In this document: positions 621 through 41,948 of the stretch, piece by piece
Layout of the letters: every line of letters starts with the position of its first letter
How positions within the stretch are numbered: position 1 is the stretch's first letter
Assembly: GCA_943356375.1 (NCBI GenBank)
Contig: CALRET010000001.1
Location: 1 to 48,437 of the forward strand
DNA length: 48,437 bases
From: Candidatus Nomurabacteria bacterium
GTDB lineage: Bacteria > Patescibacteriota > Minisyncoccia > Phycocordibacterales > UBA9973
Direction of reading: 5' to 3'
Position numbers and translations under genes: made by a program
The notes under the pieces: model-generated
Told to the model about the DNA's origin: nothing
Databases searched by the model: none
Seen by the model: the letters and a program-made list of their open reading frames with translations, nothing else

Positions 621-648
621 CTACTTTCTACTAACTACTTACTAAATA
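621..648 (+). repeat. Degenerate heptamer array x4
   Basis: CTACTTT CTACTAA CTACTTA CTAAATA, ending 1 nt before the rplK ATG. No Shine-Dalgarno sequence. Confidence 0.6.
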
Positions 649-649
649 T

Positions 650-1075
650 ATGGCTAAAAAAATTATCAAGAAGGTAAAACTAAATGTGCCAGCAGGAAAA
701 GCTACTCCTGCACCACCACTTGGACCTGCACTCGGTCAAGCTGGTGTTAACATTGGAGATTTCGTTCAGAAATTCAATGCACAGACTCAGAGTATGATGG
801 GTGAGACTGTCGGTGTTGCGCTCACTGTCTACGAAGACCGAACATATGACTTTATTGTCAAAACTCCACCAGTAGCAGGACTTATATTCAAAGCTGCAGG
901 TGTTGAGAAAGGTTCAGGAAAACCAAATACCGCAAAAGTTGGAAGCATTACTAAAGCCCAACTTCAGGCGATTGCAGAAAAGAAAATGCCGGACCTTAAT
1001 GCGAATGATATCGAAGCAGCAATGAAAATTGTTGCAGGATCAGCAAGACAGGCAGGTATTGAAATCAAAGGATAA
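650..1075 (+). CDS. rplK: 50S ribosomal protein L11
   Basis: [43 protein letters not shown] is the classic L11 N-terminus. 141 aa. Confidence 0.95.
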
Positions 1076-1093
1076 TACATAATTATCAAAATG

Positions 1094-1119
1094 AAAACCC
1101 CTCGACTGAGGGGTTTTTG
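1094..1119. terminator. Intrinsic terminator hairpin, likely bidirectional (rplK / convergent dcd-like gene)
   Basis: AAAACCCCTC GACT GAGGGGTTTT, with a T-run on the plus strand and an A-run upstream. Confidence 0.7.
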
Positions 1120-1157
1120 TTTGTCCGAACAGTGTAAGTGTACACTGTTTTAGGATT

Positions 1158-2267
1158 TTACATCTTGAATTGTTTTCCAAGTCGTGGACCGTCTTGTACG
1201 GTGTAATTCGATGCGATCGTGTCGTAGATGATAGTAGGCGTCTTTGCCATTTTCTCATATGTTGATCGTGCAAATGGCTGGTTGTCTCTGATATACATAT
1301 CTTCAGAAGAAATAACCTCAAACACAATTGGTCTTCCTTGTACCTCGCCATGTTTTCCATACCCCCATCCTGGATCAACAAACCCGGCAAAATGGCTTCG
1401 AAATTCTCCCAATCGGTCATCCATAAAGACGATCTCCACTGCATAATCAGGTGGTACTACCATGTGCTCATGAGAACACATGATGTAAAACCTACCTTTT
1501 TTCATTAAATAGAGTTCGTCATTGGCATAAATCTCTTCCCAGAAATCATCTTTCGGATAGTGATTTATTTTTGCCACATCAATAACTTCTTTTGTTTGTT
1601 TTGCAACATATCCAAAAGGAGAAGCATTTTTCATGTCGATGGTTAGCATGACCGATGATGTCGCATCATGTGAATCCATGTTTTTGAAATTTATCTGACG
1701 CTTTTGTGTGTTGCTGATCGGTTCGTAGAGTATCCCTGTTTTTTGCATTAAAATCTCAAGCTCATCCGAATGTAATCTTGTATCTGTGTTGAGGATACGC
1801 AATTGATTCAGCGATGTTCCTGGATGCAGAAGCACATTAAATACTTTTGGCGAAACCAATGCCCACATTTCTCCACTCCATCCGGCTGGCCACAAACAAT
1901 CATATTTGGACACTCGATCTACTTGTAGTCGTGCGTGGATGCCTAGTCGCCCTGTTGATGATTTTGGGTTTGCCATACCGTAGATATTTCTTGGAAAATC
2001 AATCACCTCATTAATTTTTATGAGATATGTTTTTGATTTCAGAAACGGTTTGGTCAAACTGTGTTTTTTTGTATCAATCTTGCTCATATACGAACGTATT
2101 GTTTCTCCTGGAGGGGTTTGAAACGGTGCGCGTATTTCATAGCACTCTTCGGATAATGTGAGATCGAGTGACGATGGTTTAATATTTTCTGGGTTTAGAT
2201 TCTTAATAAATCCATTGTTTGCCAGTTCTCCTATATCAATATTGGAAAGAGCTCCAAATCCTTTCAT
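1158..2267 (-). CDS. dCTP deaminase-like protein, long (~370 aa) DCD-family form
   Basis: Motifs ANPKSSTGRLGIHARL and FAGFVDPGWGYG match the dCTP deaminase/dUTPase-fold signatures. The size fits the two-lobed 2'-deoxycytidine 5'-triphosphate deaminase family. Start chosen at MKGFGALS (2267) rather than the ORF-track extension to 2378. Confidence 0.55.
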   Translation of the reverse strand: MKGFGALSNIDIGELANNGFIKNLNPENIKPSSLDLTLSEECYEIRAPFQTPPGETIRSYMSKIDTKKHSLTKPFLKSKTYLIKINEVIDFPRNIYGMANPKSSTGRLGIHARLQVDRVSKYDCLWPAGWSGEMWALVSPKVFNVLLHPGTSLNQLRILNTDTRLHSDELEILMQKTGILYEPISNTQKRQINFKNMDSHDATSSVMLTIDMKNASPFGYVAKQTKEVIDVAKINHYPKDDFWEEIYANDELYLMKKGRFYIMCSHEHMVVPPDYAVEIVFMDDRLGEFRSHFAGFVDPGWGYGKHGEVQGRPIVFEVISSEDMYIRDNQPFARSTYEKMAKTPTIIYDTIASNYTVQDGPRLGKQFKM

Positions 2268-2324
2268 AAACAAAATTATTTTTTCTACCGTAACACTACC
2301 ATATGGAGTAAGGAGTGTCAAAAC

Positions 2325-2359
2325 TGAACAGATAGTAGTTGGTAGTGAGTAGTTTGTAG
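2325..2359 (-). repeat. Degenerate heptamer array x5
   Basis: The minus strand reads CTACAAA CTACTCA CTACCAA CTACTAT CTGTTCA, upstream of the dcd-like gene. Confidence 0.6.
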
Positions 2360-2412
2360 TAAAAATACAAATTATCAATATAATATAAGATTTTATTGAT
2401 AATTGTTGTAAA

Positions 2413-2440
2413 CTATAGTCTTTTATCTATAACCTGACTA
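2413..2440 (+). repeat. Degenerate heptamer array x4
   Basis: CTATAGT CTTTTAT CTATAAC CTGACTA. Confidence 0.55.
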
Positions 2441-2474
2441 TTAAAAAATAAAAAACCGGTCGCAATGACCGGTT
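2441..2474 (-). terminator. Intrinsic terminator of the thyX-like gene
   Basis: AACCGGTC GCAAT GACCGGTT hairpin. On the minus strand it is followed by TTTTTTATTTTTT. Confidence 0.7.
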
Positions 2475-2481
2475 TGTAAAA

Positions 2482-3930
2482 CTACGATGTAGTTTTCTTT
2501 TCTGTAATATCCTGTGTTCCACGTTTTATACTGAAGGCATCAGGATTCATGTCAACATGTAGAGCTAACTGAAATCCATTTTCAGTAAACCATTCTTTGA
2601 GGTAGGTGGCCATTTGCTGTTCGGGAATTCTAAATGTCGGATGTACAGTCTGCTGTGTGCGCAGTTCGCATACATATACATACTCAGGAAGGCATCCTGT
2701 GGTTTCAGTTTGAACTGTGTATCCCATAGGAATATAGTTTTGCGCCTCTTCTCTTGATATAGAGAGTAACAGTTTATTTAGTTTCTCTTTAAATAGCCAT
2801 AAATGTTTCTCTGCTTCTTTTCGGAGGGATTCAGGTAACTGTTCCATATACCACGGAAAGAAACCGTGTTGCGTATGAAGTAATGGCATTTTAAGTACCC
2901 AAGGACGATGACGCTGCATATCACGGAACGATCCGAAGTCTATCGGAAAAGTGACTCTAATTTGCCCACATTCATTTACAAGAGAGGGAAGTAGAGAATG
3001 CTGGGGTCTGTGTTCAAGAGGACCACGATATTTTTCCAAATCGTTCACATCCAGAGTATTTTTAAGTACTGTGAACGGTTGATACGGCAAGTCAAAGTAA
3101 GTAAACTCTTTTGCGCATTTTGCATTATATGCAACCTGGTCATGATATTCTTTGTGTCCAAAACTATCAGGATATGTTTCTTTTAAAGCAACAAGGACCT
3201 GATCCGCAATCTCTGAAATCTCCGAAACAGGATGCATGCGCAAAATATCGAGACGATTTTTTGCGTGCTGTAAACTGGTTGTCCAAGAGAGGTATGTTGT
3301 AACACCGGCCGGTAAGAACCCACGAGCAATATCAAATGCTTTTGCTTTAATCCCTTTTTCATAATTCAGATCAAATTTTGCAATTTCATCTGGTTCCGTT
3401 TTATCACATTTTGGTTTTGGAAAACGAAGCTTAAGATCAGGAACAAGTTCAGCAAGTACTTTCTCGTAAAACGCCATGCTTTCCTTTTGCAAATCTTCTC
3501 CTCTTTGAGTTCCGGCAGGATTTTTAGTCGCCTGAAGAGACATATTGAGATAGCGAGTGCTTGATTCTTGTCCATCATACAAAGCTGAGTCTTGAAAAGC
3601 TTTTGCAACAAGCATTGAAACATTTTCGAGACAAATAGTAGTATACCCGCATTGACCGATAGAACCGTGTCCATAGCCAACATAAAATGTTCCCATTATT
3701 TGTTTTGTTCCGTCTTTGCGAAGTTTCTCAAAATGCTTGAGAACGCTTTTAGGATCACGAGAATACAGTGCCTGTATCATCGCATTATCTTCAGGATTTA
3801 ATCCATCGATAACAATTACTCTTCTGTCTTCCGATAAGTATTTTACGGCAAGATTTATTGATTTTTGTCTGTGTCCCGCAATCTCTTCTTTATTGATTAC
3901 GGGGATTTCTAATCCATTTTGGGTTGTCAT
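2482..3930 (-). CDS. ThyX-like (flavin-dependent thymidylate synthase family) protein, long duplicated-lobe form
   Basis: The N-terminal half has GYGHGSIGQCG...LENVS...YDGQESSTRYL, matching the ThyX H-x-S...vS...Q-x-S-x-RY pattern. The C-terminal half has FRDMQRHRPW (RHR motif) and ELRTQQTVHPTFR. 482 aa is about twice a canonical ThyX monomer. Confidence 0.45.
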   Translation of the reverse strand: MTTQNGLEIPVINKEEIAGHRQKSINLAVKYLSEDRRVIVIDGLNPEDNAMIQALYSRDPKSVLKHFEKLRKDGTKQIMGTFYVGYGHGSIGQCGYTTICLENVSMLVAKAFQDSALYDGQESSTRYLNMSLQATKNPAGTQRGEDLQKESMAFYEKVLAELVPDLKLRFPKPKCDKTEPDEIAKFDLNYEKGIKAKAFDIARGFLPAGVTTYLSWTTSLQHAKNRLDILRMHPVSEISEIADQVLVALKETYPDSFGHKEYHDQVAYNAKCAKEFTYFDLPYQPFTVLKNTLDVNDLEKYRGPLEHRPQHSLLPSLVNECGQIRVTFPIDFGSFRDMQRHRPWVLKMPLLHTQHGFFPWYMEQLPESLRKEAEKHLWLFKEKLNKLLLSISREEAQNYIPMGYTVQTETTGCLPEYVYVCELRTQQTVHPTFRIPEQQMATYLKEWFTENGFQLALHVDMNPDAFSIKRGTQDITEKKTTS

Positions 3931-3979
3931 GGTGCAAATTATTTTTTCGTCTGACTCTAATCTATACTTAAATAAGAAT

Positions 3980-4019
3980 TTGTCAAAGCTTTGACAAGGT
4001 TATTTTTTTGTATTAATAT
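3980..4019. promoter_or_regulatory. Divergent promoter region with 18-nt perfect palindrome overlapping the -35 elements
   Basis: TTGTCAAAGCTTTGACAA (3980-3997). For the plus-strand gene: TTGACA (3991-3996), 17 nt, TAATAT (4014-4019). The mirror TTGACA/TTGTCA is available for the minus-strand thyX-like gene. Confidence 0.4.
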
Positions 4020-4047
4020 CCAATCAGATTAAAAAGTTTTTTTATGT

Positions 4048-4719
4048 ATGGAATATGAATATAAACCATTTCTTATTGGTATTGATATGGATATGGTTAG
4101 TGCTGATTATGAGACTCCGGGTGGTATTTTCTTACAGCTATGGGAAAAACGATTGCCTGGTGTTAAATATCTGGGATGTAAAGAATCTCCTCACTGGATG
4201 GTTGAAAAGAATTACCATCTATTTCATCAGCCGATCATTAATAAAATGTTTATGAAACCGCCAAAAGGGTTTTATCTCAGGCTTGAGCCAATGAAGGGTG
4301 CCATTGACGCAATCAAAGAACTTCAAAAAATAGCTGAAGTGGTCATGGTAACTACACCGGTATATGAGGCAGATGGGCACAATCTCAGTTTAAAGGAATT
4401 GGCAGAGCGCGATCAATTGTGGTCACGAGTTGTTACTGAAAAAAAAGAATGGCTTCGCAATTATTTAGGGAAAGACGCGCCACCACTCATACCACTTTCT
4501 GATAAAACTATGTTCCATGGTGATATATTGATTGATGATCGTCCGGGTAGTGGGGAAGCAAAACGGAGAAAACCATCATATATACATGTACTCTATGATG
4601 ATAATTATTTGTACAACAGAAACAGAAAGGTTAAACACAAGATGAATTGGGGAACATATACGAAAGTTATACCTCTAGTCTTGGAAGAAGTAGAAGAAAA
4701 ACGCAGAATAGCTGCATAA
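4048..4719 (+). CDS. 5'(3')-deoxyribonucleotidase, NT5C/HAD family
   Basis: HAD motif I IGIDMDMVSADYE (DxDxV), VMVTTP, EKKEWLRNYLG and DILIDDRP match the NT5C layout. Confidence 0.6.
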   Translation: MEYEYKPFLIGIDMDMVSADYETPGGIFLQLWEKRLPGVKYLGCKESPHWMVEKNYHLFHQPIINKMFMKPPKGFYLRLEPMKGAIDAIKELQKIAEVVMVTTPVYEADGHNLSLKELAERDQLWSRVVTEKKEWLRNYLGKDAPPLIPLSDKTMFHGDILIDDRPGSGEAKRRKPSYIHVLYDDNYLYNRNRKVKHKMNWGTYTKVIPLVLEEVEEKRRIAA

Positions 4720-4724
4720 TACAC

Positions 4725-4746
4725 AAAGCCGAGTAATCGGCTTTTT
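4725..4746 (+). terminator. Intrinsic terminator
   Basis: AAAGCCGA GTAA TCGGCTTT followed by TT. Confidence 0.65.
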
Positions 4747-4801
4747 ATATTGTATTTTCAGTTTTCTGTGTTAGTCTGTGCTCAGACGTTATTTATATTC
4801 T

Positions 4802-5848
4802 ATGATTCCAGTGCAGTGTAAGGCAAAGTGGGATACCACTACAAAAGGATTGTGTATTCCCAGTTCAGTACAGTACACAGAAGAACAAAAGAAGGATTTA
4901 GAATGTATTATTTCCAGCTACGCAAAAGAGTGTGGTATGTCTGAAGTGGAGGTTCTGGATGTCCTTCAGAGCGCTATAACGCAATCACATGAAATGTACC
5001 AATATCTCTCTATTGGGATACTGGTGAGCATGGGTCTATATCGGACCAAGTCACGAGCGATTGTAGCTTCGGTGTTTGCTAGAAGTGAAGATGGTGTCGT
5101 GGTCCGTTATCAAAAAACAAAAAGGATGTTATTCGTTAAACGGATTGGTCCGCGTAAATTTTTTGAACGAGTGCTTGACTATATACCTGACGGTAAAGCA
5201 CGTTGGGATAATGCTCATACTTACAAAGAGAAAAAGAGTATCAAGCAAAAGACTGCGCATCCTCAGATTGAAATCGTTAAGGTGGATACGCAAAAATTTG
5301 AAGAGTTGCGGTCTCGAGTGTATGTACAGTTAAAAACTTTTCCGGTACACCGTTCTTCTCAGATCATTCTTTCATCGATAGAATCTTTCTCGGGTATACA
5401 TAAGGAAAAATTGGTACTTGCCCAAGGGAAAAGGTCTAACGGTTCTCGTGTGAGGACTAAACGGGTGTATTCTGATTTGAGGAAAATATTTTTTTCAGCA
5501 ATGAAGGAAGTGTATGGAAATGAAATTTCATTAATTTTTCTTGCATCATTTTTTACACCCAAAGGAGAGATGCCAAATCATTCCAATGTACAACTCTCAA
5601 TCAAAGACCATAAATTCCTGATTGAAAACGACAAGTATTATATGGATACATTTTTTATTTTTCTTACCCACGTCTCATTTGTTTTGAATGCATACCTCTT
5701 GTATGAAGAAGAATTTGCACGTTTGGATAGCGATACTGTAGATCTTGAAAAGAGGAAGAAGGAAATATTCGATGGGATTATTTTGAGTGCGAGAAAAAAT
5801 CTCATACATGTACATACAGAAAATAAGAGAGAAGTAGTTATTGCTTAA
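4802..5848 (+). CDS. Hypothetical protein, paralog 1, with DnaA-domain-IV-like C-terminal HTH
   Basis: The segment ...RTKRVYSDLRKIFFSAMKEVYGNEISLIFLASFF...NHSNVQLSIK follows the DnaA C-terminal pattern (R..aRqiamyL..e.t..S...Ig..fg.rdHsTV.ha..k). The N-terminus (KAKWD..K..IP...YTEE) resembles the next gene. ATG at 4802 preferred over GTG at 4778. Confidence 0.4.
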   Translation: MIPVQCKAKWDTTTKGLCIPSSVQYTEEQKKDLECIISSYAKECGMSEVEVLDVLQSAITQSHEMYQYLSIGILVSMGLYRTKSRAIVASVFARSEDGVVVRYQKTKRMLFVKRIGPRKFFERVLDYIPDGKARWDNAHTYKEKKSIKQKTAHPQIEIVKVDTQKFEELRSRVYVQLKTFPVHRSSQIILSSIESFSGIHKEKLVLAQGKRSNGSRVRTKRVYSDLRKIFFSAMKEVYGNEISLIFLASFFTPKGEMPNHSNVQLSIKDHKFLIENDKYYMDTFFIFLTHVSFVLNAYLLYEEEFARLDSDTVDLEKRKKEIFDGIILSARKNLIHVHTENKREVVIA

Positions 5849-5851
5849 CAT

Positions 5852-5880
5852 AACCCCTCCTGATACGGAGGGGTTTTCGT
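5852..5880 (+). terminator. Intrinsic terminator
   Basis: AACCCCTCC TGATAC GGAGGGGTT followed by TTCGTTT. Confidence 0.65.
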
Positions 5881-5927
5881 TTGCTAATATAATACTTTTA
5901 TTGTAGTCTAAAGAAAAAATTTGTTCC

Positions 5928-6779
5928 ATGACAAAGAAGAAAGAATCGATCACTGCTCGTCCAAAATGGAATGCGGAAAGGAAAGTCTTTATTATCCCAA
6001 AAAAATCCGGTTACACAAAAGAAGAATCCGAGGTGATTGGATACATAGGGGAGCTCTTGGTGTGTATGGCCGAAGATATGCATATTTCGGTAGAAAAAAT
6101 TCTTGCGCTCAGGGATTATCACAGTAATCCAAACCCAGATATTAGTGCTGCGCATCGATTCCTACTCAGGTTTATATATGAACATTTTCCAACTGCGATA
6201 CACTTGTTTCTCATTGTGTTATCAAAGACAGAAGAGAAAATGAAGCGATTTATTATTCATCAAAATCGATTCTTCTCTGACCCGACACACGAGATATCGT
6301 TTGATCGATATAACGGAATGTTTAAAAAACAGCATCCGGTTATCAGAAAAATTGTCTTTCCGAAACGCACCATTGCTATTCCTGAAGAGGTACAAGAATT
6401 CAAAATTCCTGAAGCGTTTAAAAAAGTGTCTCCAGTAGATCTCATTGAAATCATTTTTGAAACAGTGAAAGAAAAATTCAATATTGATCTTACGGTGTAT
6501 ACACTGGGCACTAAAGATAAATGCATCCCATACAATCTGTATGTATCGAGGAAAATAAGCATCGGTATCATCCTATTAACCTACGGAGAAAATTTTTCCT
6601 TCGTTGAGCTCCATAGACAGTTTGCTGGACGCTTGGAATATTCACAGATAAACAGCTCTATTGATCACTATAAAAATGAACATCACAAATGCATAATGGA
6701 AGATGCGGTATATAATATTTTATATGCGATTATCTATACTGCTATTCTCCAAAAAATAGAAGTCAAAAAAAGCCCTTGA
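5928..6779 (+). CDS. Hypothetical protein, paralog 2, with DnaA-domain-IV-like C-terminal HTH
   Basis: VSRKISIGIILLTYGENFSFVELHRQFAGRLEYSQINSSIDHYK follows the DnaA domain IV pattern. The N-terminus RPKWNAERKVFIIPKKSGYTKEE parallels paralog 1. Confidence 0.4.
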   Translation: MTKKKESITARPKWNAERKVFIIPKKSGYTKEESEVIGYIGELLVCMAEDMHISVEKILALRDYHSNPNPDISAAHRFLLRFIYEHFPTAIHLFLIVLSKTEEKMKRFIIHQNRFFSDPTHEISFDRYNGMFKKQHPVIRKIVFPKRTIAIPEEVQEFKIPEAFKKVSPVDLIEIIFETVKEKFNIDLTVYTLGTKDKCIPYNLYVSRKISIGIILLTYGENFSFVELHRQFAGRLEYSQINSSIDHYKNEHHKCIMEDAVYNILYAIIYTAILQKIEVKKSP

Positions 6780-6793
6780 TATAAGGGCTTTTT
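6768..6793 (+). terminator. Intrinsic terminator overlapping the stop codon
   Basis: AAAAGCCCTT GATAT AAGGGCTTTT followed by T. Confidence 0.6.
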
Positions 6794-6811
6794 ACATGCT
6801 ACTATGACGCT

Positions 6812-8521
6812 ATGATTACTGAAACTATACAGTCTGGAGTGACAAAGGCTTTGCAATCGCTCGGTCTCGAAGGCGATATCCGCCTTGAACATCCAGCAGA
6901 TCTCTCTCATGGAGATTATTCTACTAATGTCGCTTTTGTACTTGCAAAAAAAGAAGGTGAGAATCCTCGCGCGCTTGCAGAGAAAATCTGCGTAGAACTT
7001 AATAAAAATTTACCTCCTGAAATAGAAAAAATTGAAATCGCTGGTCCAGGATTTATTAATTTTTATTTATCAAAAATTTTTTTTATTGAACGTGTTAACT
7101 ATATTACAGCAAAACCAGATGAATGGGGGACAAACAAAATGCTTGCTGGTAAAAAAATAATGGTTGAATATACGGATCCAAATCCATTCAAACCATTTCA
7201 TATTGGGCATTTAATGACTAATACAATTGGTGAATCTATTGCACGTATTACTGAGGCAAATGGTGCAACAGTCGTTCGAGCAAACTATCAAGGTGATGTC
7301 GGACTTCATGTTGCAAAGGCGATATATGGCATGTTGAAAGAGGGTGGACCAGACGGAATGCTCCCGGCATCCCTACAAGCTGAGATTATCGGTACACGTT
7401 ATTCATGGGGTTCGAACGAATATGATACAAATGAAGAAACTAAAAAAGAAATCGATGCAATAAACAAAAAGATATACGAAAAAAGTGATAGTGAAATAAA
7501 TATTTTATATGAACACGGCAGAAAAGTTACCCTTGAGGCGTTTGAAGAGATATATAAATTATTGGGAACAAAATTCGTGCACTATTTCTTTGAATCAGAT
7601 ATGGCTGTCGTTGGGGCACAGATTGTAAAGGAGCATACAGGTCCTGTATTTGAAGAATCAGATGGTGCCATTGTCTTTTATGCTGAAAGATATAATCCAA
7701 AATTAAATCCGCGCGTGTTTATTACTGGCGCAGGACTCCCGACATATGAATGCAAAGAACTCGGTCTGACAAAAACAAAATTTGAAAAAGAAAATCCAGA
7801 TCTTTCCATAGTTATAACTGCAATAGAACAAGACAACTATATGAAAGTGGTTACCACTGCGCTCTCAGTTATTGCGCCAGATTGGGCATCTCGCATGAAG
7901 CACATTACACATGGAATGATGCGTTTGACCTCTGGTAAAATGTCTTCACGCAAAGGAAATATTATTACCGGCGAATCCATAATACGTGATTCAATTGCAT
8001 TAGTTGCAGAAAAAGTCGTAGAACGTGAAATGAGTGGAGATGATAAAAAGGCGATCGCACAGATTGTCGGTGTTGCTGCGCTCAAGTACTCAATTCTCAA
8101 ATCTTCAATCGGTTCGGATATCGTGTATGATCCAGAGAAATCAATTTCATTTGAAGGAGATTCGGGACCATATCTACAGTACACAGCAGTACGTGCACAG
8201 TCTATTATTGCAAAAGCGGGGAACAGTAAAATTATACAAGAAGTAGAACCGATAGAGGGTTATGTGATTACTAATTTAGAAAAAATAATATATGGATTTG
8301 AAGAAGTGGTTATCCATGCAAAAGAAGAATTCCAGCCACACCATATTACGACTTACTTAACAAAACTCGCGAGCGAATTTAACTCATTTTATGCAAATAC
8401 TAAAATTTTAGTTGATGATAATCCTTATAAAGACTATCATCTTGTACTAGTGAGTGCATTTTATATAACTATGAGAAATGGTCTTTATTTATTAGGTATT
8501 CAAACTCCGGAAAAAATGTAG
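6812..8521 (+). CDS. argS: Arginine--tRNA ligase
   Basis: Class I HIGH motif (PFHIGHLMTN). ArgRS N-terminal add-on domain (HPADLSHGDYSTNVAF). DALR-like C-terminus ending in M. 569 aa. Confidence 0.9.
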   Translation: MITETIQSGVTKALQSLGLEGDIRLEHPADLSHGDYSTNVAFVLAKKEGENPRALAEKICVELNKNLPPEIEKIEIAGPGFINFYLSKIFFIERVNYITAKPDEWGTNKMLAGKKIMVEYTDPNPFKPFHIGHLMTNTIGESIARITEANGATVVRANYQGDVGLHVAKAIYGMLKEGGPDGMLPASLQAEIIGTRYSWGSNEYDTNEETKKEIDAINKKIYEKSDSEINILYEHGRKVTLEAFEEIYKLLGTKFVHYFFESDMAVVGAQIVKEHTGPVFEESDGAIVFYAERYNPKLNPRVFITGAGLPTYECKELGLTKTKFEKENPDLSIVITAIEQDNYMKVVTTALSVIAPDWASRMKHITHGMMRLTSGKMSSRKGNIITGESIIRDSIALVAEKVVEREMSGDDKKAIAQIVGVAALKYSILKSSIGSDIVYDPEKSISFEGDSGPYLQYTAVRAQSIIAKAGNSKIIQEVEPIEGYVITNLEKIIYGFEEVVIHAKEEFQPHHITTYLTKLASEFNSFYANTKILVDDNPYKDYHLVLVSAFYITMRNGLYLLGIQTPEKM

Positions 8522-8524
8522 AGA

Positions 8525-8552
8525 CTAGGGTATAGCGGATAGCGTCTAGGAA
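8525..8552 (+). repeat. Degenerate heptamer array x4
   Basis: CTAGGGT ATAGCGG ATAGCGT CTAGGAA, starting 4 nt after the argS stop. Confidence 0.5.
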
Positions 8553-8562
8553 ATTCAAAAGA

Positions 8563-8741
8563 AATAAAAAAATCCGGGACTAAGAAAGTCATCCCGGATA
8601 ATGGTCAAAGAGGGTAATCAATCCTCTTTTCTTTGTTTGGTCAACATAAAGAACTTAACTTAAACCTAAACCCGAAAAGGAGAAGTTCTTTTAGGTCTTA
8701 GACAATCAAATGTCTTTACCTATACCGCACAAGGAGCGACC
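8563..8741 (-). ncRNA. Candidate ~180-nt small RNA (unknown family)
   Basis: Minus-strand promoter TTGACC (8776-8771), 17 nt, TATAGT (8753-8748). Minus-strand intrinsic terminator: stem 8572-8579/8592-8599 followed by U7. No ORF longer than 9 codons. Internal hairpins AAAGAACTT/AAGTTCTTT and AAAGAGG/CCTCTTT. Confidence 0.4.
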
Positions 8742-8874
8742 AAAATAACTATATACCTCAATCTAAAATCGGTCAATTTTTTGCTAACAAAGCCGGAATA
8801 TGTCTTGATGAAATCCACTTGGACTTTCCGTAGTGAACAGGTACGATAGTGTCAGACCAAATAGTTTTTTACCA

Positions 8875-9978
8875 ATGGAAAAGCTTAAAATTTATGTTGG
8901 TTGCGCACTCAAACATGCATCCCTAGAATACAAACAGAGGATCGCTTTGTTTAAAGAACAGTTACCTAAACATCTCAATTGTGAAATTCTTGAATTTGTC
9001 ACTGAGTCAGATGCGACACCAAAAGAAGTTTACAATAATGATATTGGAGGATGTGTCAAAGAATGTCACCTGATGGTTGCCGATGTTACTCATCCATCAC
9101 TTGGTTTGGGGTATGAGACAGGAACGATAGTTGAGAAATATAAAAAACCAGTTTTGTTTTTAGCTGAGACCGGTTCATTGGTTTCGAAAGTGATTCTGGG
9201 TGTGCCAAATGCTGAAATTCATGATTATGAAAGCATTGATGAAATGATTTTGGCAGTGGTTGCGTTTGTTGAAAAACACAATATTCAAGCACCGACTCGT
9301 GGAAAGCTGATCGTCATCGAAGGTATTGATGGGTCAGGAAAAACAACACAGCAAGGACTTTTGATGGAACGACTCAAGAAAGAAGGGAAACGAGTTGAGT
9401 CACTTCATTTTCCACGTCACGGAGAAAAATTCTTTGGTGTCATGGTTGATGAATATCTGATGGGTAAGTTTGGACACGCATCTGCAGTCAATCCATATCT
9501 TGCATCAGTACTCTATGCGGGTGATCGGTGGGAGGCAAAGCCACAGATTGAGCAATGGTTGAATGATGGGGTGTATGTGGTTCTTGATCGCTACGATACT
9601 TCGAACAAAGGCCATCAAGTTGGAAAGTTAAAAACCGAGGAAGAAAAGCTTCAGTGTTTGAGATGGCTTGATGAATTGGAATACAAAACATTTAAAATTC
9701 CGGTTCCTGACAAGGTGTTATACCTTGATCTTCCACTTGAGAAGAATCTTGAACTCATTGCAAAGAGAGGAAGCAAGGGTAAGGAGTACAGCAAAGGAGG
9801 TGCTGACCAACATGAAAACAGAGAGCATTTATCAAACGCTCAGGCAGCGTATCGATTTGTCGTGAACCAGTATTCATACTGGCAGAAGATCTATTGCGCT
9901 CCGACCGGAGAACTTCGCACAGTTGAAGATATCCACGAGGAAATCTATGCAGCAGTTGCTGAAAAGGTATATGCCTAA
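8875..9978 (+). CDS. tmk: Fusion protein: nucleoside 2-deoxyribosyltransferase/DNPH1-like domain + dTMP kinase
   Basis: The N-terminal half (KIYVGCAL...MVADVTHPSLGLGYETGT...KKPVLFL) matches the deoxyribosyltransferase-like fold with a conserved Glu. The C-terminal half has LIVIEGIDGSGKTTQ (P-loop), FPRHG and DRY, as in thymidylate kinase. ATG at 8875 preferred over GTG at 8833. Confidence 0.65.
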   Translation: MEKLKIYVGCALKHASLEYKQRIALFKEQLPKHLNCEILEFVTESDATPKEVYNNDIGGCVKECHLMVADVTHPSLGLGYETGTIVEKYKKPVLFLAETGSLVSKVILGVPNAEIHDYESIDEMILAVVAFVEKHNIQAPTRGKLIVIEGIDGSGKTTQQGLLMERLKKEGKRVESLHFPRHGEKFFGVMVDEYLMGKFGHASAVNPYLASVLYAGDRWEAKPQIEQWLNDGVYVVLDRYDTSNKGHQVGKLKTEEEKLQCLRWLDELEYKTFKIPVPDKVLYLDLPLEKNLELIAKRGSKGKEYSKGGADQHENREHLSNAQAAYRFVVNQYSYWQKIYCAPTGELRTVEDIHEEIYAAVAEKVYA

Positions 9979-9981
9979 AAC

Positions 9982-10007
9982 AAAACCCGCACATGTGCGG
10001 GTTTTTT
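9982..10007. terminator. Bidirectional intrinsic terminator
   Basis: AAAACCCGCACATGTGCGGGTTTTTT lies between convergent genes. Confidence 0.7.
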
Positions 10008-10010
10008 AAT

Positions 10011-10463
10011 TTATAGAGGTAAACGATTGAAACGAGAAATTGCTTTTTGTTTTAGTTCCTCTTGTTCTTTAAGTTTTTTTACCTCGGTATCTTTTTCTGC
10101 TTCTCCTAAACCAAGAGTCCAGAAGAATATAGTTAAAACACATGAAGCAAAAAATATTTCAATAACGATGTTTTGTGAAAAAACAGTAGTTAATTCTTTC
10201 CCAAAATAACCGAGAATAAAATCTATTAACAGAAAGATATACATAATAATTCTGTATTTTTTAGATACAACAGTGTCTGCGGTATAAAGAGCCGATCCTG
10301 GTTGTTGTGCCTCAGTTTTAGTGACACCTTCTTCTTCAACAGGTATTTCTCCTTCTCCGAAGCAGGTAGGGCAGGTGTATTGAGAAGTAATGATTGAAGA
10401 ATGATTACCTCTTTTGTATTTTTTACCTTCACCGTGACAGCTGGGGCAAATCTTTGTTTTCAT
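10011..10463 (-). CDS. Membrane protein with DnaJ-type CxxCxGxG zinc-finger pair
   Basis: CPSCHGEG and CPTCFGEG near the N-terminus. Two hydrophobic segments. Coiled C-terminus. Confidence 0.5.
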   Translation of the reverse strand: MKTKICPSCHGEGKKYKRGNHSSIITSQYTCPTCFGEGEIPVEEEGVTKTEAQQPGSALYTADTVVSKKYRIIMYIFLLIDFILGYFGKELTTVFSQNIVIEIFFASCVLTIFFWTLGLGEAEKDTEVKKLKEQEELKQKAISRFNRLPL

Positions 10464-10530
10464 GTTGTGTAAGAATATTCTGTGTGGAATTTAACATATA
10501 AAAATAACATCGTCAATATCTATATTAGTA

Positions 10531-10554
10531 ATATAAAAACCCGCTCAAGCGGGT
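10531..10554 (-). terminator. Intrinsic terminator
   Basis: ACCCGC TCAA GCGGGT. On the minus strand it is followed by TTTTATATT. Confidence 0.55.
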
Positions 10555-10577
10555 CTGATGAAATTTTAAATCCGTAC

Positions 10578-10766
10578 TCATCCTCCAAAGACCATAGTTC
10601 TGGGTGGTTTTCCGCATTTACTGCATGCGTAATTTATTGAACCTTTTTTGAGACTGATAGGGGTATATTTTTTGCAGGTGCAATATCCTGGACCGGTGGG
10701 TCTTTCGGTTCGAATTTTGTTTTTCTTTCTAATAAGTCTTTGCGCAAGCCAGGTTAGTAAACTCAT
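10578..10766 (-). CDS. Small basic Cys-rich (zinc-ribbon-like) protein
   Basis: 62 aa from MSLLTW. CTC...C..C arrangement (YCTCKK...YACSKCGK). Has its own terminator. Confidence 0.35.
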   Translation of the reverse strand: MSLLTWLAQRLIRKKNKIRTERPTGPGYCTCKKYTPISLKKGSINYACSKCGKPPRTMVFGG

Positions 10767-10825
10767 TATAATAGGGTATCTCTGTTCGCAGTATAGCGAT
10801 ATATTGAATTTTAGCAAGCAGTGGG

Positions 10826-10875
10826 GTATACCCTAGCACTTACTTCTTTGCAAAGAAGTAAGTGCTAGGGTATAC
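10826..10875. repeat. 50-nt perfect palindrome
   Basis: GTATACCCTAGCACTTACTTCTTTG / CAAAGAAGTAAGTGCTAGGGTATAC. The arms contain the CTAGCAC and CTAGGGT units also seen in the heptamer arrays. Confidence 0.8.
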
Positions 10876-10876
10876 T

Positions 10877-11040
10877 CGAAGTATAGACGGTGAAGGAGCT
10901 ATCACTCTGGAGTCTTGGGAAGAAATCCTTGCAAAAGGGGAATAGAACCCACTAATTAAGAAGCAACTAAGGTGGTACCACGAGTAGAAACTCGTCCTTG
11001 GATTATGATTATTCATAGTTCGTGGACGAGTTTTTTATTT
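10877..11040 (+). promoter_or_regulatory. T-box leader (tRNA-sensing) with antiterminator/terminator switch upstream of ileS
   Basis: T-box sequence AACTAAGGTGGTACCACGAG at 10965-10984. CCACGA (10978-83) can pair with TCGTGG (11020-25) to form the antiterminator. The competing terminator is AAACTCGTCC (10988-97) / GGACGAGTTT (11024-33) plus a T-run. Ile codons ATC at 10901 (followed by A) and 10925. Confidence 0.7.
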
Positions 11041-31606: not shown

Positions 31607-31634
31607 CTAGTTTCTAGGGACTAGGTGCTAGTTC
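31607..31634 (+). repeat. Degenerate heptamer array x4 (CTAG-rich)
   Basis: CTAGTTT CTAGGGA CTAGGTG CTAGTTC. Confidence 0.6.
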
Positions 31635-31866: not shown

Positions 31867-31937
31867 GATACATTGTACCTTAGAAAGCACATATGGCAAT
31901 ATCTAGCTGTGGATAACTCTGGAACAGGTGGTAGGTT

Positions 31938-31958
31938 CTAGGTGCTAGTTTCTAGTAA
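31938..31958 (+). repeat. Degenerate heptamer array x3 (CTAG-rich)
   Basis: CTAGGTG CTAGTTT CTAGTAA. Confidence 0.55.
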
Positions 31959-34602: not shown

Positions 34603-34637
34603 CTAAAACCTAGTCCTTAGAACCTAGCACCTAGTTT
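34603..34637 (+). repeat. Degenerate heptamer array x5 (CTAG-rich)
   Basis: CTAAAAC CTAGTCC TTAGAAC CTAGCAC CTAGTTT, upstream of rpsF. Confidence 0.6.
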
Positions 34638-38765: not shown

Positions 38766-38800
38766 GTATTAGATAGTAGCTTACAGCTTGTAGCTGATAG
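38766..38800 (-). repeat. Degenerate heptamer array x5
   Basis: The minus strand reads CTATCAG CTACAAG CTGTAAG CTACTAT CTAATAC. It overlaps the last codons of the four-helix-bundle gene and abuts the recA start. Confidence 0.65.
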
Positions 38801-39167
38801 GACCACTGTCTTGTTGAAATTTCTTTATAATAGTTGCTAACATTTTTTGTACCTCAATAACGAGACCTAGAGGTTTTTCAGTATCAATTGTAGCATATAA
38901 TTCTTTTGCAATAAGTAGTTGTGTTTCAAGTTCTGCGGCTGATCCACTTGCAATTCTTAAAAATTGTGAAAAATCTTTTTTTGTACCTCGCTTCTTACCC
39001 TCTGCTATATTTGAAGGAATTGATACAGCGGAACGTTCCATTTGAGAGCGTAAATTAAATATCTCAGATTTTGGGAGTTTTTCACATAACATATAGATTT
39101 CTTTAACTAATTGCATGGATCTTTGCCAAACAAGTAAATCTTTAAATGATGTTATTTGTGTACTCAT
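38781..39167 (-). CDS. Four-helix-bundle protein (23S rRNA intervening-sequence protein / Avd-like family)
   Basis: [18 protein letters not shown]...[44 protein letters not shown] is the characteristic family signature. Confidence 0.8.
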
Positions 39168-39181: not shown

Positions 39182-39216
39182 CTACAAGCTACAAGCTTTA
39201 ACCTATTATCTAGTCT
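39182..39216 (+). repeat. Degenerate heptamer array x5
   Basis: CTACAAG CTACAAG CTTTAAC CTATTAT CTAGTCT, immediately upstream (in gene sense) of the four-helix-bundle gene. Confidence 0.65.
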
Positions 39217-39551
39217 TAGCTATTAAAAAATTCTATCGTCTTAACCACTTCTCTTCCTATCCTATCTTCTGCCTTTAGTGTTACCACAGAATATCCTTTT
39301 TGAAGGAGTATTGTATCGGTAAACGTTTCGTCACGATCAATAAGGACAAGTCGGTCATTGATAGTCAATTCCTTTGCATGAAGGGCGTGTCCACTGAATT
39401 CAACCAATCGAGCATTTACTGAGTCTTGAGTAAATGAATATGAGAGAGTGAGTCGTTTCGAAGACCATATCATAAAGATAATATAAACCAGGAGAGCTAC
39501 TCCTAATAAAATAAATATTTTGTATTTTATTTTTTGCTTATCAGTGCTCAT
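39216..39551 (-). CDS. Hypothetical single-pass membrane protein
   Basis: 111 aa. N-terminal TM helix IFILLGVALLVYIIFMIW. Confidence 0.4.
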   Translation of the reverse strand: MSTDKQKIKYKIFILLGVALLVYIIFMIWSSKRLTLSYSFTQDSVNARLVEFSGHALHAKELTINDRLVLIDRDETFTDTILLQKGYSVVTLKAEDRIGREVVKTIEFFNS

Positions 39552-39584
39552 AATAACTAGATTATAGTAAAAGACAATTTATTA

Positions 39585-41777
39585 TTAATTCATTTCATCA
39601 CCGGATCCAGCTTGTTCCTGTGTCATCGTTTTCTCTAGAACATCTCGCGCTTTCGAACCGTTTCCTGGACCCACTACTCCACGTTCTTCCAGTATATCAA
39701 TAAGTCGTGCTGCGCGTGCGTAACCGACACCTAGTTTCCTTTGAAGGTATGATGTCGACGCCTTTCCACTTTCAATGACGATTTGTCGGGCTTGTTCGTA
39801 TAGTTCATCGTCTGCATCTTGCCCACCGTCAACCATTGAAGAGAAAATTGAATTTACTGCTTCGACAGGTCCTGAAAGTTCGATTGTATCAGGTACTTCA
39901 TCTTTAAATGCTTGTACGAGGTATTTTACCACATTTTTTACTTCTTCTTCAGAGATGAATGCAGACTGTAAACGTCTTGGTTGTCCTTCACCATCAGCAT
40001 AGAGCATATCTCCGGCACCCAAGAGTTTTTCAGCTCCTGCAGAGTCCAAGATAGTACGTGAGTCGACTTGCGTTGGTACACGAAGCGCGATACGGGTTGG
40101 GACGTTTGCTTTGATAAGTCCAGTAATGACATTCACTTCTGGACGCTGGGTTGAGAGAATAAGGTGAATACCAACCGCACGAGACATTTGTGCAAGGCGA
40201 ACGATCGCTGCTTCGAGCTCTCGAGGATATGTTTGCATAATGTCGGCAAGTTCATCGATGATAATGACGATATAGGGTAGTGGGTCGATCCCTTCAATAG
40301 CTTCTTCATCTTTCGCTTTTGATTTTTCATTTTTAATTTGATTGTGATACGACTCGATGTCACGCACAGATTCAGCTTGGAGGATGTCATATCGACGATC
40401 CATTTCTTTTGCAGCCCATTTGAGAGCCAAGATACATTTCTTCGCATCAGTGATTACTGGGGTAAGGAGGTGAGGGATTTTGTTGTAGAGAGTCAATTCG
40501 ACACGTTTTGGGTCGACGAAAATAAGCTTGAGATCATCTGGACTATTGCGGTAGAGGAGTGAGGTAATAATCGTGTGAATGGTTACGGATTTTCCGGAAC
40601 CAGTTGTTCCTGCAATAAGAGCATGAGGCATTTTTGCCATATTTGCAAAATGTGCACGACCGGAAATATCTCGTCCGATTGCAACAGTAAGTGCTTTTGA
40701 CGCATTTTTGAATTTTTCGTCTGCGAGCAAGGTCCCTAGTCCGACTGTTGATTTTGTTTTATTTGGTATTTCAATACCCACAAGCGATTTCCCGGGAATT
40801 GGAGCTTCTATACGGATCGGGTGTGCAGCGAGAGCCATAGCCATATCATTCTGGAGACCGACAATACGAGAGAGTTTAACGCCGACCGCGGGTTTGAGTG
40901 CATAGCGAGTTACTGTTGGACCAATAGTAACTTCATCCATTTCGACTTCGATGCCAAAGTTAAGGAGTGTTCGTTTAATAATATTTGCATTTGCTTTGAT
41001 ATCTCCAACATTTGCTTTTCCACGATCTTGCTCAAGAAGAGAAAGGGGAGGGGGAACATAGTTACCATGGAATTTAAATCCTGAATGAGATTTAGAAACA
41101 GGCTCAAATTCATCATCAGTATCTTTTTCTTCTTTGGTACTTTTCCTACTCTCTTCTTGTAGAGGTTTTTCGTCTTCAGTATCTGCAACACTTTCTTCTT
41201 CAGATGTCTCTGTGTAGTCTGCAGTATCAGAAATAGAAACAACAGCTACAGAAGTGCTTTTTTTAAATTTATTTTTAAACCATTCAGATAGTTGTGAGAA
41301 ATCAGGTTTTACATCAAAAAGAACCAACAGAGAAATGACAAGTATTGCAGTCAAAAATATAACCCCTGCAAAAGTCTCAAAGAGTGCAACAAAAGGGAAA
41401 CCAACTGCATGACCAATAATTCCCCCACGTGCAGTTACTGATAATAGATCTAAAATTCCCAATCCCGAAAGAAAGAAAATGAGCGCACTGATTGTATGAA
41501 TTGTTGCAAGATTTGGACGTTCGCTTTTAAGAAAAGTAATACCGAGTAACGTGAGAATAAGCGGGACTAATATATACCCAAGACCAAACAATGCGGTGAG
41601 AGAGTTGTACACAAAATCTCCCGCAACACCGCCTTTGTGGAATGCCGCAATAACAAAAAAGAAAGCAAAGAGGAGACATACAATAGCGTATATTCCATGT
41701 TTTGTTTCTTGGCGAATTATTTTAAGCGGACTTTCAGTTTCCTTTTTCTTTGTTGGTTTGGTGTCGGTTTTTTTCAT
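39585..41777 (-). CDS. ftsK: DNA translocase FtsK
   Basis: N-terminal TM helices, acidic linker, motor domain with GTTGSGKS (Walker A) and IIIDELADIM (Walker B), and a C-terminal gamma winged helix (YEQARQIV...STSYLQRKLGVGYARAARLIDILEERG). Confidence 0.95.
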   Translation of the reverse strand: MKKTDTKPTKKKETESPLKIIRQETKHGIYAIVCLLFAFFFVIAAFHKGGVAGDFVYNSLTALFGLGYILVPLILTLLGITFLKSERPNLATIHTISALIFFLSGLGILDLLSVTARGGIIGHAVGFPFVALFETFAGVIFLTAILVISLLVLFDVKPDFSQLSEWFKNKFKKSTSVAVVSISDTADYTETSEEESVADTEDEKPLQEESRKSTKEEKDTDDEFEPVSKSHSGFKFHGNYVPPPLSLLEQDRGKANVGDIKANANIIKRTLLNFGIEVEMDEVTIGPTVTRYALKPAVGVKLSRIVGLQNDMAMALAAHPIRIEAPIPGKSLVGIEIPNKTKSTVGLGTLLADEKFKNASKALTVAIGRDISGRAHFANMAKMPHALIAGTTGSGKSVTIHTIITSLLYRNSPDDLKLIFVDPKRVELTLYNKIPHLLTPVITDAKKCILALKWAAKEMDRRYDILQAESVRDIESYHNQIKNEKSKAKDEEAIEGIDPLPYIVIIIDELADIMQTYPRELEAAIVRLAQMSRAVGIHLILSTQRPEVNVITGLIKANVPTRIALRVPTQVDSRTILDSAGAEKLLGAGDMLYADGEGQPRRLQSAFISEEEVKNVVKYLVQAFKDEVPDTIELSGPVEAVNSIFSSMVDGGQDADDELYEQARQIVIESGKASTSYLQRKLGVGYARAARLIDILEERGVVGPGNGSKARDVLEKTMTQEQAGSGDEMN

Positions 41778-41913
41778 TACTTTTGTTGTGTAAAATGTGT
41801 GGATAACTTTTTCAGATATATATCGAAAAGATAAATGTATTTTAGCACAAACAACAGCACAATTTCTAATTTACTTACGCTTTAAATTAAGTGTTTATTT
41901 GAATTCGCATTTT

Positions 41914-41948
41914 CTACAAGCTGTCAGCTACTAGCTACTATCTGTCCA
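41914..41948 (+). repeat. Degenerate heptamer array x5
   Basis: CTACAAG CTGTCAG CTACTAG CTACTAT CTGTCCA. Preceded by TTCGCATTTTCTA, as at 19192. Confidence 0.65.

Follow-up and report, generated by a model that had tools for sequence, protein, structure and literature searches.

Heptanucleotide arrays at gene boundaries of a Candidatus Nomurabacteria contig: probable arms of an intervening-sequence-like cassette family with PF05635 genes

What are the short periodic sequences found at so many gene boundaries in a contig of a Candidatus Nomurabacteria bacterium? The stretch analyzed here, called the window throughout, is the whole 48,437-nt contig CALRET010000001.1 (GenBank assembly GCA_943356375.1), of metagenomic origin (ENA ERZ27280297, Logan ERR5863107), and it carries dispersed arrays of degenerate 7-nt units, nearly all of which begin with CT. 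The nearest relatives of the window RecA carry the labels Pacebacteria, Paceibacterota, Nomurabacteria, and Minisyncoccia, by which the host can be placed as a Paceibacteria-type member of the Candidate Phyla Radiation (CPR). A preliminary description, made from the letters of the window, had listed 14 arrays and proposed that selection holds their 7-nt phase, either for a contacting protein or for an unstructured messenger RNA (mRNA) leader. We propose instead, with a probability of about 0.6, that the arrays belong, as arms, to a mobile or unstable family of cassettes that resemble intervening sequences and are built around PF05635 genes, together with gene-less derivatives of these cassettes, and that they are the CPR counterpart of the short tandemly repeated repetitive (STRR) type of repeat.

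The arrays themselves are beyond chance. All 14 are present in the window with the sequences, coordinates, and strands first given, and a fifteenth (14018-14052, minus strand), inside ileS, brings with it a third copy of the TTCGCATTTT flank. The array placed at 8525-8552 is real, but its boundaries had to be redrawn, as it is better read as five units at 8515-8549. Self-similarity at a lag of 7 nt gives nine clusters in the window, and zero or one at lags of 4, 5, 8, 10, 11, and 13 nt; CT-phased arrays with five of five units number 12 at period 7, and zero or one at every other period from 4 to 12. The intergenic DNA (4.7 kb) holds 13 strand-counted CT-phased arrays of at least four units, eight of them with at least five, whereas 1000 dinucleotide-preserving shuffles of the same DNA averaged 0.12 (maximum 2) and 0.008, respectively; a similar rate in shuffled DNA, which the preliminary description had named as the outcome that would undo the family, is far from what was found. 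Arrays have four or five true units and no longer ones occur. In about 10 of the 15, a T-rich lead-in (TTYGNATTTY) stands immediately 5' of the CTA phase, with the subgroups ttcgcatttt (arrays 19202, 41914, and 14018), tttgtattttt (2325 and 21208), and tttgaatttc or tttgatttctc (8515 and 39182). Common flanks and a common order of units mark the arrays as related copies and not low complexity, as had been held, and their placement at gene boundaries also holds, with two arrays lying within coding sequence (ileS and tatD). Singly, they are neither hairpins nor terminators, in agreement with the preliminary description: the minimum free energy (MFE) of single arrays is 0 to -5 kcal/mol, about equal to that of shuffles, none is palindromic, the CTA strand has few G and no predicted structure, and the antisense strand reads (NNNNTAG)n. 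They lack the GC-rich hairpin, with a T-run behind it, of an intrinsic terminator; a scan of 1-20,000 placed no terminator-like site inside an array, and the genes of that region possess separate canonical terminators (e.g., 2453-2475 and 18471-18499).

The link to a gene family comes from an arrangement that the preliminary description had overlooked, the inverted pairing of arrays 38766 and 39182 around an open reading frame (ORF):

38781-39167, minus strand: PF05635 gene of 128 aa, the cassette cargo (Pfam E = 1.2e-34)
38766-38800, minus strand: right cassette arm CTATCAG CTACAAG CTGTAAG CTACTAT CTAATAC, ending 2 nt before the recA ATG (38763)
39182-39216, plus strand: left cassette arm, in gene sense AGACTAG ATAATAG GTTAAAG CTTGTAG CTTGTAG, then GAGAAATCAAAAAG, then the ATG

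PF05635 is the family of the 23S rRNA intervening-sequence protein, an Avd-like four-helix bundle, and this four-helix-bundle protein, which the preliminary description had mentioned as a neighbor of an array, turns out to be the key associate of the arrays. In gene sense, the cassette consists of (NNNNTAG)5, a 14-nt spacer with a motif resembling the Shine-Dalgarno (SD) sequence, the ORF, (CTANNNN)5, 2 nt, and the recA ATG, with the last PF05635 residues and the TAA stop supplied by the downstream array. The arms are imperfect inverted repeats of about 30 bp. In a 471-nt fold, the MFE and centroid structures alike pair them over a distance of about 400 nt, and when joined by a short linker they reach -36.5 kcal/mol. 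Gene and arms together form an insertion of about 450 nt that separates a small gene from recA. In five syntenic relatives (L024, L026, L028, L030, and L031, with RecA 85-93% identical to that of the window; L numbers denote the other contigs), ftsK, the small gene, and recA are consecutive with gaps of 3-22 nt, and the PF05635 gene and both arms are absent from the junction; in the close relative L032 they are present at this very site.

Intervening sequences that encode a PF05635 protein are found in the 23S rRNA genes of Leptospira, Coxiella, and others. The window cassette resembles them in its PF05635 ORF, in the stem-forming terminal inverted repeats around it, and in being inserted as a unit; it differs in lying between a small protein gene and recA in a window that has no rRNA and in the heptamer periodicity of its arms. 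Its terminal inverted repeats also recall miniature inverted-repeat transposable elements and transposons, from which it differs in having no clear target-site duplication and, as sole cargo, a PF05635 gene, which is not a known transposase. The third likeness is to the Avd protein of diversity-generating retroelements (DGRs). The window protein matches 2GSC in the Protein Data Bank (PDB; E = 2.6e-19) and, weakly, bAvd (PDB 4DWL), and its PDB homologues 2GSC and 2RLD have five chains each, as in bAvd, which is described as a pentamer; the window gene, however, has no adjacent reverse transcriptase, template, or variable repeat.

The architecture recurs in other CPR genomes. A second, independent PF05635 insertion separates ssb from rpsR in L033, where L024, L028, and L030 have gaps of 1-19 nt by called-gene coordinates. 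Searches with the protein alone recovered cassettes in L033, in L038 (Liptonbacteria), and twice in L039; one L039 cassette uses another heptamer (AAAACYN and its complement), and a PF05635 insertion in this contig lies before topA. All six CPR PF05635 genes retrieved through the protein have a TAG-phased array upstream (one of them AAAAC-type) and a complementary array downstream, the latter against the next ATG in four of the six. Predicted folding energies of the six arm pairs range from -13 to -37 kcal/mol, and only one pair is weaker than -21. Within 20 kb, L039 has 11 lag-7 clusters, mostly inverted pairs, some of which flank tRNA genes.

Beyond CPR, a tblastn search of plasmids with the window PF05635 protein returned 29 records, mostly from Nostocales. 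The flanks of 11 plasmid genes were inspected:

Anabaena sp. 90: upstream (GGTGACA)n, downstream (CTGTCAC)n, period 7
Nostoc edaphicum: upstream (GGAGTAG)n, downstream (CTACTCC)n, period 7
Pseudanabaena: upstream (CTAAAAG)14, downstream (CCAAAAG)n, period 7
Calothrix: upstream none, downstream CTAAAAG, period 7
PCC 7120 (two plasmids): upstream none complementary, downstream (CTTCTGC)n, period 7
Stanieria: upstream GGCAGAA-type, downstream (CTTCTGC)n, period 7
Geminocystis: upstream GGGAAAA/GGGAAGA-type, downstream (CTTTTCC)n, period 7
Riemerella (Bacteroidota): upstream GGTTCAA, downstream TTGAACC, period 7
Picosynechococcus: upstream GGAGATAA-type, downstream ATCTCCTA-type, period 8
Gemmatirosa (Gemmatimonadota): upstream CTCCTGCG/CTTCTGCC-type with GGGAGGG-type farther upstream, downstream (CTCCTGCC)n, period 8

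We then scored the boundaries of 16 PF05635 genes, all found via the protein and not via arrays, from CPR, Cyanobacteriota, Bacteroidota, and Gemmatimonadota, counting a boundary as positive when it reached 15 or more matches out of 21 at a lag of 7 or 8. Arrays were present at 24 of 32 PF05635 boundaries and at 31 of 248 control boundaries of other genes at the same loci (Fisher 3e-13), and 1 of 32 PF05635 boundaries was positive at control lags. Both sides were positive for 9 of the 16 PF05635 genes versus 1 of 124 control genes (2.5e-9). As neighbors of PF05635 genes share their arrays, this comparison errs on the conservative side.

Individual plasmids add to this association. On pANA02 (Anabaena sp. 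90), 50 kb contain five lag-7 arrays, four of which are grouped around the PF05635 gene; the fifth (4066-4094 in L047; gene-strand sequence TATCACC AATTACC AATTACC) falls between the avd and reverse-transcriptase genes of a DGR, with no partner seen upstream of avd. The Nostoc edaphicum plasmid carries its GGGAGTA/TACTCCC flavor as a solo array, an empty hairpin, and a gene-flanking pair, three states also seen in the window. Cassettes of the same flavor have the most similar proteins (80% for PCC 7120 and Stanieria, 74% for Calothrix and Pseudanabaena), and this agreement across cyanobacterial orders is indicative that protein and arms travel together. In three cyanobacterial plasmids (L041, L046, and L052), the PF05635 cassette sits within a CRISPR-Cas operon, where its neighbors are cas6 and cas4 in two cases and cas10 and cmr3 in the third.

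The preliminary description was right to name the STRR repeats as the precedent. Reportedly, these heptanucleotides were described in heterocystous cyanobacteria by Mazel et al. in 1990; Nostocales are their classical hosts, and the canonical STRR1-3 units in Nostocales genomes are CCCCAGT, TTGGTCA, and CAACAGT. The window arrays agree with them in the 7-nt unit, the tandem arrangement, the intergenic position, and the dispersal as a family, and arrays in Nostocales plasmids flank the same PF05635 family. The window units (CTACAAG, CTGTAAG, CTAGNNC, and CTAAACC, generally degenerate CTANNNN) are not those of STRR1-3, the host is a CPR bacterium, and the arrays have four or five units, whereas cyanobacterial arrays are often long.

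The remaining window arrays were placed in the family by their sequence, lead-in, and phase:

621-648, plus strand: solo arm CTACTTT CTACTAA CTACTTA CTAAATA, ending 1 nt 5' of the rplK ATG (650)
2325-2440, no strand assigned: composite 116-nt block between the thyX terminator and the dcd -35 hexamer, with CTA-phased arms at 2325-2359 on the minus strand and at 2413-2440 on the plus strand and, in the spacer that separates them, an 11-nt inverted repeat (about 2368-2405)
8515-8549, minus strand: five-unit arm CTAGACG CTATCCG CTATACC CTAGTCT CTACATT, TAG-phased on the plus strand and starting with the argS stop codon TAG (8519-8521); the GAAATTCAAAAG that follows resembles the spacer after the left cassette arm in L032
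14018-14064, minus strand: five-unit arm with TTCGCATTTTTT lead-in, antisense and in frame in the ileS coding sequence
18530-18565, plus strand: arm TTAAACC CTAAACC x3 CTAGCCC, with the T-rich lead-in ctgtatttc on its 5' side, ending at the recO ATG (18566)
19192-19236, plus strand: TTCGCATTTT lead-in and five-unit arm, 19 nt 5' of the ATG of a 635-aa ORF; a TTAACC-17-TGnTATAAT promoter match (consensus match only) overlaps it
21208-21256, minus strand: five-unit arm CTACAAG CTGTAAG CTACGAG CTACTAT CTGTATG with T-rich lead-in, between the stop of the 635-aa ORF (21163) and the proS ATG (21263)
29988-30022, plus strand: five-unit array in frame inside tatD, in a hypervariable loop; by alignment, the window TatD is about 9 residues longer here than its closest relative, in L024
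31607-31634, no strand assigned: CTAG-type array 10 nt 3' of the stop of a holA-like gene
31938-31958, no strand assigned: CTAG-type array of three units, a direct copy of part of 31607-31634, its direct-repeat partner about 300 nt away
34603-34637, plus strand: arm CTAAAAC CTAGTCC TTAGAAC CTAGCAC CTAGTTT, 37 nt before the rpsF ATG, with a TTGACA hexamer directly downstream
41904-41948, plus strand: TTCGCATTTT lead-in and arm CTACAAG CTGTCAG CTACTAG CTACTAT CTGTCCA, in the divergent region between ftsK and a DeoR-like gene

The roughly 300 nt between 31607 and 31938, earlier put forward as a candidate small RNA, gave only chance-level Rfam matches.

Is the insertion of the cassette mirrored by these other arrays? 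Four of the syntenic relatives (L024, L026, L028, and L030) have no lag-7 cluster in about 77 kb and no array at five window junctions, including none in the regions upstream of rpsF and ftsK (checked in L024, L026, L028, and L030). From the 635-aa gene to proS there are 1-51 nt and no array in L024, L026, and L028; the 635-aa ORF was without a match in a first scan of genome contigs, its homologues were later found in these three contigs, and the protein is conserved among close relatives only. Turnover can be seen over a much shorter distance in the near-identical relative L049/L050/L032, whose NusG is 100%, L11 99.3%, FtsK 92.6%, and RecA N-terminus 96.5% identical to those of the window, with flanking coding DNA about 95% identical. 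L049 has an extra TAG-phased array of 41-45 nt directly 3' of the nusG stop, which the window lacks; at the rplK ATG it has an array of another flavor (CTAGCGC CTAGTGC CTAGCCC CTAACTA), complementary to its own extra arm after nusG; and it lacks the whole 116-nt block 2325-2440, with about 13 nt between the thyX terminator and the dcd promoter. Since whole arrays are gained or lost among near-identical genomes, the arrays appear, from these sequence comparisons, to be insertions or deletions with a turnover much faster than that of their surroundings.

In the same region, dcd is 70% and the ThyX-like protein 35% identical between window 1158-3930 and L049, despite 99-100% for NusG and L11, which suggests that this block was replaced by recombination or horizontal transfer. 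Moreover, rplK (650-1157) is not followed by rplA in the window; a convergent dCTP deaminase gene is next, an order common to L049.

How widely is the array sequence itself spread? The exact core CTACAAGCTGTAAGCTACNNNCTA, with 21 specified bases (CTACAAGCTGTAAGCTAC...CTA), was searched in 185,579 species (one genome each) and matched four genomes, all Patescibacteria (Kaiserbacteria, Saccharibacteria, and two unclassified) of 41-55% GC. From these matches, the distribution of the core seems patchy, despite a near-identical sequence across Patescibacteria of differing GC. Near-identical 24-mers of arrays occur in distant CPR classes of different GC content, and a near-identical copy of the 34603 arm (CTAGAAC CTAGTCC CTAGCAC CTAAAAC) is found in the unrelated 56% GC contig L011. 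One of the genome matches, L023, has short arrays between two tRNA genes. Among 17 matching metagenome contigs, eight have short arrays like those of the window, two of them being near-duplicates of the CPR genome matches; the short arrays of core-matching contigs often lie against an ATG and sometimes form hairpin pairs. The other nine (L004, L005, L007, L008, L010, L012, L016, L017, and L018) were discarded as long CTACAAG/CTATAAG satellites. These satellite contigs have 34-40% GC, hundreds of bases of repeats, and a conserved terminal sequence of about 60 nt. Only L010 among them was examined: its 12 kb contain (GA)n and (GT)n tracts and not a single ORF of 100 aa or more. The satellites look eukaryotic, the heptamer probably being shared by coincidence. 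Viral contigs gave neither the array core nor PF05635 relatives, and no phage vector is identified thereby.

The results above show that the period is non-random, that arrays are copies of one another and have been inserted, and that the cassette layout recurs across phyla; our reading is built on these points. In this cassette model, one array would be one arm, a T-rich lead-in with four to five CTANNNN units and about 35-50 nt in total, which may exist singly, as an opposite-phase pair around a short spacer, or as a complementary inverted pair enclosing a PF05635 gene. The gene-enclosing pair would have the architecture of a 23S rRNA intervening sequence placed between the protein-coding genes of an operon. 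Elements would be quickly gained and lost, landing at gene boundaries, with the TAG-phased arm on or just after the upstream stop codon and the CTA-phased arm directly against the next ATG. They would be co-transcribed with their neighbors, and two complementary arms would pair into a stem of about 30 bp, which RNase III might cut in the way it processes rRNA intervening sequences. The G-poor CTA arm beside an ATG may be harmless to translation in a nearly SD-free genome, and the elements would be essentially selfish or neutral.

Several observations weigh against the cassette model. Only one of the roughly 15 window arrays pairs around a PF05635 gene, and the opposite-phase arms 2325 and 2413 pair poorly (-15.2 kcal/mol, z = -1.0), no better than shuffles. 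The folding of cassette arms revealed no asymmetry between sense and antisense and no excess of G-U-compatible changes on the sense strand, by which an RNA-level role of the arms is not demonstrated. No transposase or recombinase could be tied to the arrays, and no clear target-site duplication was found at filled versus empty sites of the window and L049; mobility is therefore deduced from presence and absence alone. We know of no catalytic activity of PF05635 proteins. The cross-phylum sample is small, 16 genes of which the non-CPR ones come from plasmids only and 2 have period 8. Finally, both close genomes keep an array at the rplK ATG, with its sequence changed, and three contigs share an array upstream of ppa without a single difference (30/30) while their coding sequence agrees to about 85%. 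Together with the strict ATG placement of CTA arms, these two cases make a local function possible.

A bolder extension of the cassette model, which we consider doubtful, is that the STRR-type repeats of Cyanobacteria, CPR, Bacteroidota, and other phyla are the footprint of one hitherto unrecognized family of elements encoding only PF05635, neither slippage debris nor host regulatory sites. The PF05635 pentamer would read one 7-nt (sometimes 8-nt) unit per protomer and, with a polymerase or reverse transcriptase of host or element, would generate or mobilize arms by reiterative templated copying. One unit per protomer, which would explain the limit of four to five units in CPR, is a notion prompted by this limit and by the five chains of the PDB homologues. 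Ring proteins that read short periodic RNA are exemplified by HutP, whose site is UAG-N4-UAG-N4-UAG, and by TRAP, which reads GAG/UAG repeats; the antisense (NNNNTAG)n has the spacing of the HutP site, an analogy only for a ring protein reading 7-nt units. As the orientation of arrays is mixed and no such protein was identified, a true UAG-N4 site of the HutP kind was rejected; no homologue of HutP or TRAP was found, none having been sought.

An unlikely reading, close to that of the preliminary description, takes the arrays as conserved cis-acting sites kept by selection for the adjacent gene, either as contacts of an oligomeric RNA- or DNA-binding protein or as an unstructured leader independent of SD. 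Of about 35 CPR arms in CTA orientation, about 15 have their end between -5 and +6 nt from the ATG of a long ORF (in the window, +1 nt at rplK, +1 at recO, and +2 at recA), and the CTA strand is G-poor and unstructured; the invariant array upstream of ppa, the flanks of which have diverged, and the array persisting at the rplK ATG of two genomes with differing sequence also speak for it. Similar placement is known from TAACTGA heptamer direct repeats of marine Beggiatoaceae, Cyanobacteria, and Bacteroidetes, which occur as sets of 2-6 copies, mostly forward, ending about 1 nt before a start codon without SD, some sets overlapping ORF ends or sitting inside ORFs, with a patchy distribution suggestive of horizontal spread (MacGregor, 2015; PMC4679880). 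The same paper reports a single nearly invariant heptamer with almost no inverted sets, and four-helix-bundle or intervening-sequence genes are not mentioned in it (PMC4679880). Read in CT phase, the TAACTGA unit becomes CTGATAA, and forward sets that end about 1 nt before a start without SD have their like in the window at rplK, recO, and recA, although there are no TAACTGA arrays in the window.

What decides against conserved sites is the absence of arrays at orthologous junctions of syntenic relatives, which express the same housekeeping genes without them, and the gain and loss of whole arrays between near-identical genomes; selection on a 7-nt contact or an unstructured leader, as first proposed, does not agree with either. 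Arrays also occur in both orientations, after stops, in two coding sequences, and between tRNA genes. The lack of an SD, earlier noted for array-preceded genes, is not specific to them, being a genome-wide trait: an SD-like motif (GGAG, GAGG, or AGGA) precedes only 4 of 47 window genes, one of which is the PF05635 gene. Consensus promoter matches are no more frequent than in shuffles, and no fixed distance from arrays to promoter hexamers was found. Tandem -10-like hexamers (TACTAT, TATAAC) for leaderless mRNAs were rejected, as they do not keep a consistent distance from the ATG and promoter matches stay at the level of shuffles, and so was TAG every 7 nt as a backup stop in all frames, which fits one orientation only and leaves arms 5' of start codons unexplained. 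As a separate observation, many ATGs of the window lie 6-10 nt 3' of a TATAAT-like hexamer (e.g., 6812, 19256, 34675, 43580, and 45809), which suggests leaderless or very short-leader mRNAs.

It is quite improbable that the arrays are ordinary slippage-prone heptanucleotide simple sequence repeats (SSRs) that arose independently at AT-rich intergenic sites and then decayed. Long heptanucleotide SSRs are said to have been described by Mrazek in 2007. Slippage would account for the one-unit difference between the related contigs L009/L020 and L014 and for the arrays next to cyanobacterial PF05635 genes, which can be very long, and in many prokaryotes no class of long SSRs is commoner than heptanucleotides (summarized in PMC4679880). 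It does not account for a length that stops at four to five units with no tail, for the order of non-identical units and the non-repeat lead-in common to different copies, for near-identical 24-mers in distant CPR classes of different GC, or for arms in matched inverted pairs around one gene family.

We see just as little likelihood that the arrays are processing or insulation stems that benefit the host, with RNase III cleavage uncoupling cistrons or maturing tRNAs or cargo mRNA. The long arm-arm stems that are predicted, the arrays flanking tRNA genes in L039 and L023, and the analogy with rRNA intervening sequences carrying the PF05635 family would suit such stems, yet most window arrays are solo or pair poorly, the sense strand has no excess of G-U-compatible changes, and relatives do without arrays.

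Repetitive extragenic palindromic (REP) elements and their inverted doublets (REPINs) are short extragenic sequences, lineage-specific and evolving within genomes, associated with REP-associated tyrosine transposases (RAYTs) (Bertels and Rainey, 2011; PMC3116915). It is very improbable, and we reject it, that the arrays are such elements and owe their mobility to the Y1 transposase genes of the window (two IS200-like, RAYT-like genes at 45809-47154). In its favor, the arrays too are extragenic singlets and inverted doublets, Y1_Tnp genes occur in the window and in the array-bearing L033, and GTAG, which opens Escherichia coli REPs as a conserved 5' tetranucleotide, is frequent on the TAG strand. 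Against it, the window Y1_Tnp genes carry a palindrome of their own (AGCAAGRAC-N-GTYCTTGCT), their homologues in L033 and L031 are also flanked by their own palindromes, single heptamer arrays are neither imperfect palindromes nor, as a REP is, flanking a RAYT gene, and L031 has a Y1_Tnp gene and no arrays.

The Y1_Tnp genes lie in tandem (45809-46414 and 46414-47154), each bracketed by the palindrome, of which there are five copies (42048, 45582, 45759, 46366, and 47167; span 42048-47185) versus 0 expected, in a view of 45437-47260 plus 42048-42066. A 177-bp tandem duplication (45578-45930; 97% identical) includes the palindrome, a TATATAAT box, and the first approximately 30 Y1_Tnp codons. 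By their sequence, genes and palindromes resemble a system of the REP/RAYT type, here in a CPR bacterium and distinct from the heptamer arrays. Beside them, an ORF at the end of the window (47261-48436) encodes collagen triple-helix repeats and a glycine-rich domain, an unusual cargo next to Y1 transposase genes. Elsewhere in the window, the region upstream of ileS has a sub-threshold match to a T-box leader (10881-11002; 39 bits against a gathering score of 93, E = 1.8e-7), preceded on its 5' side by a perfect-looking 30-bp hairpin (10821-10880), and in the IleRS ORF (11058-14528; 1156 aa) a Pfam match to His_Phos_1 (histidine phosphatase) lies between two tRNA-synt_1 segments. Perfect DnaA-box 9-mers (TTATCCACA) occur three times (31908-31916, 41798-41806, and 43104-43112) versus 0.64 expected, all intergenic, two of them flanking the divergent ftsK/DeoR-like gene region.

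Heptamer repeats have been known since 1990, as the STRRs of cyanobacteria, the TAACTGA repeats of Beggiatoaceae, and long heptanucleotide SSRs, and PF05635 intervening sequences are known as well. In the searchable literature, outside of which many subscription papers lie, we did not find heptamer repeats in CPR or PF05635 genes bracketed by short-period arrays; the CPR occurrence and the cross-phylum bracketing appear new, and a prior description is possible. For the annotation of CPR metagenome-assembled genomes, the arrays matter directly, as they shift gene starts and stops, extend ORFs (dcd, and the PF05635 gene with its stop codon), and sit in frame inside conserved genes. Above all, heptamer repeats gain a concrete partner, PF05635 genes bracketed by inverted arrays in four phyla, and if this bracketing holds genome-wide, an old descriptive puzzle would become testable as unit binding, stem processing, and insertion into operon junctions.

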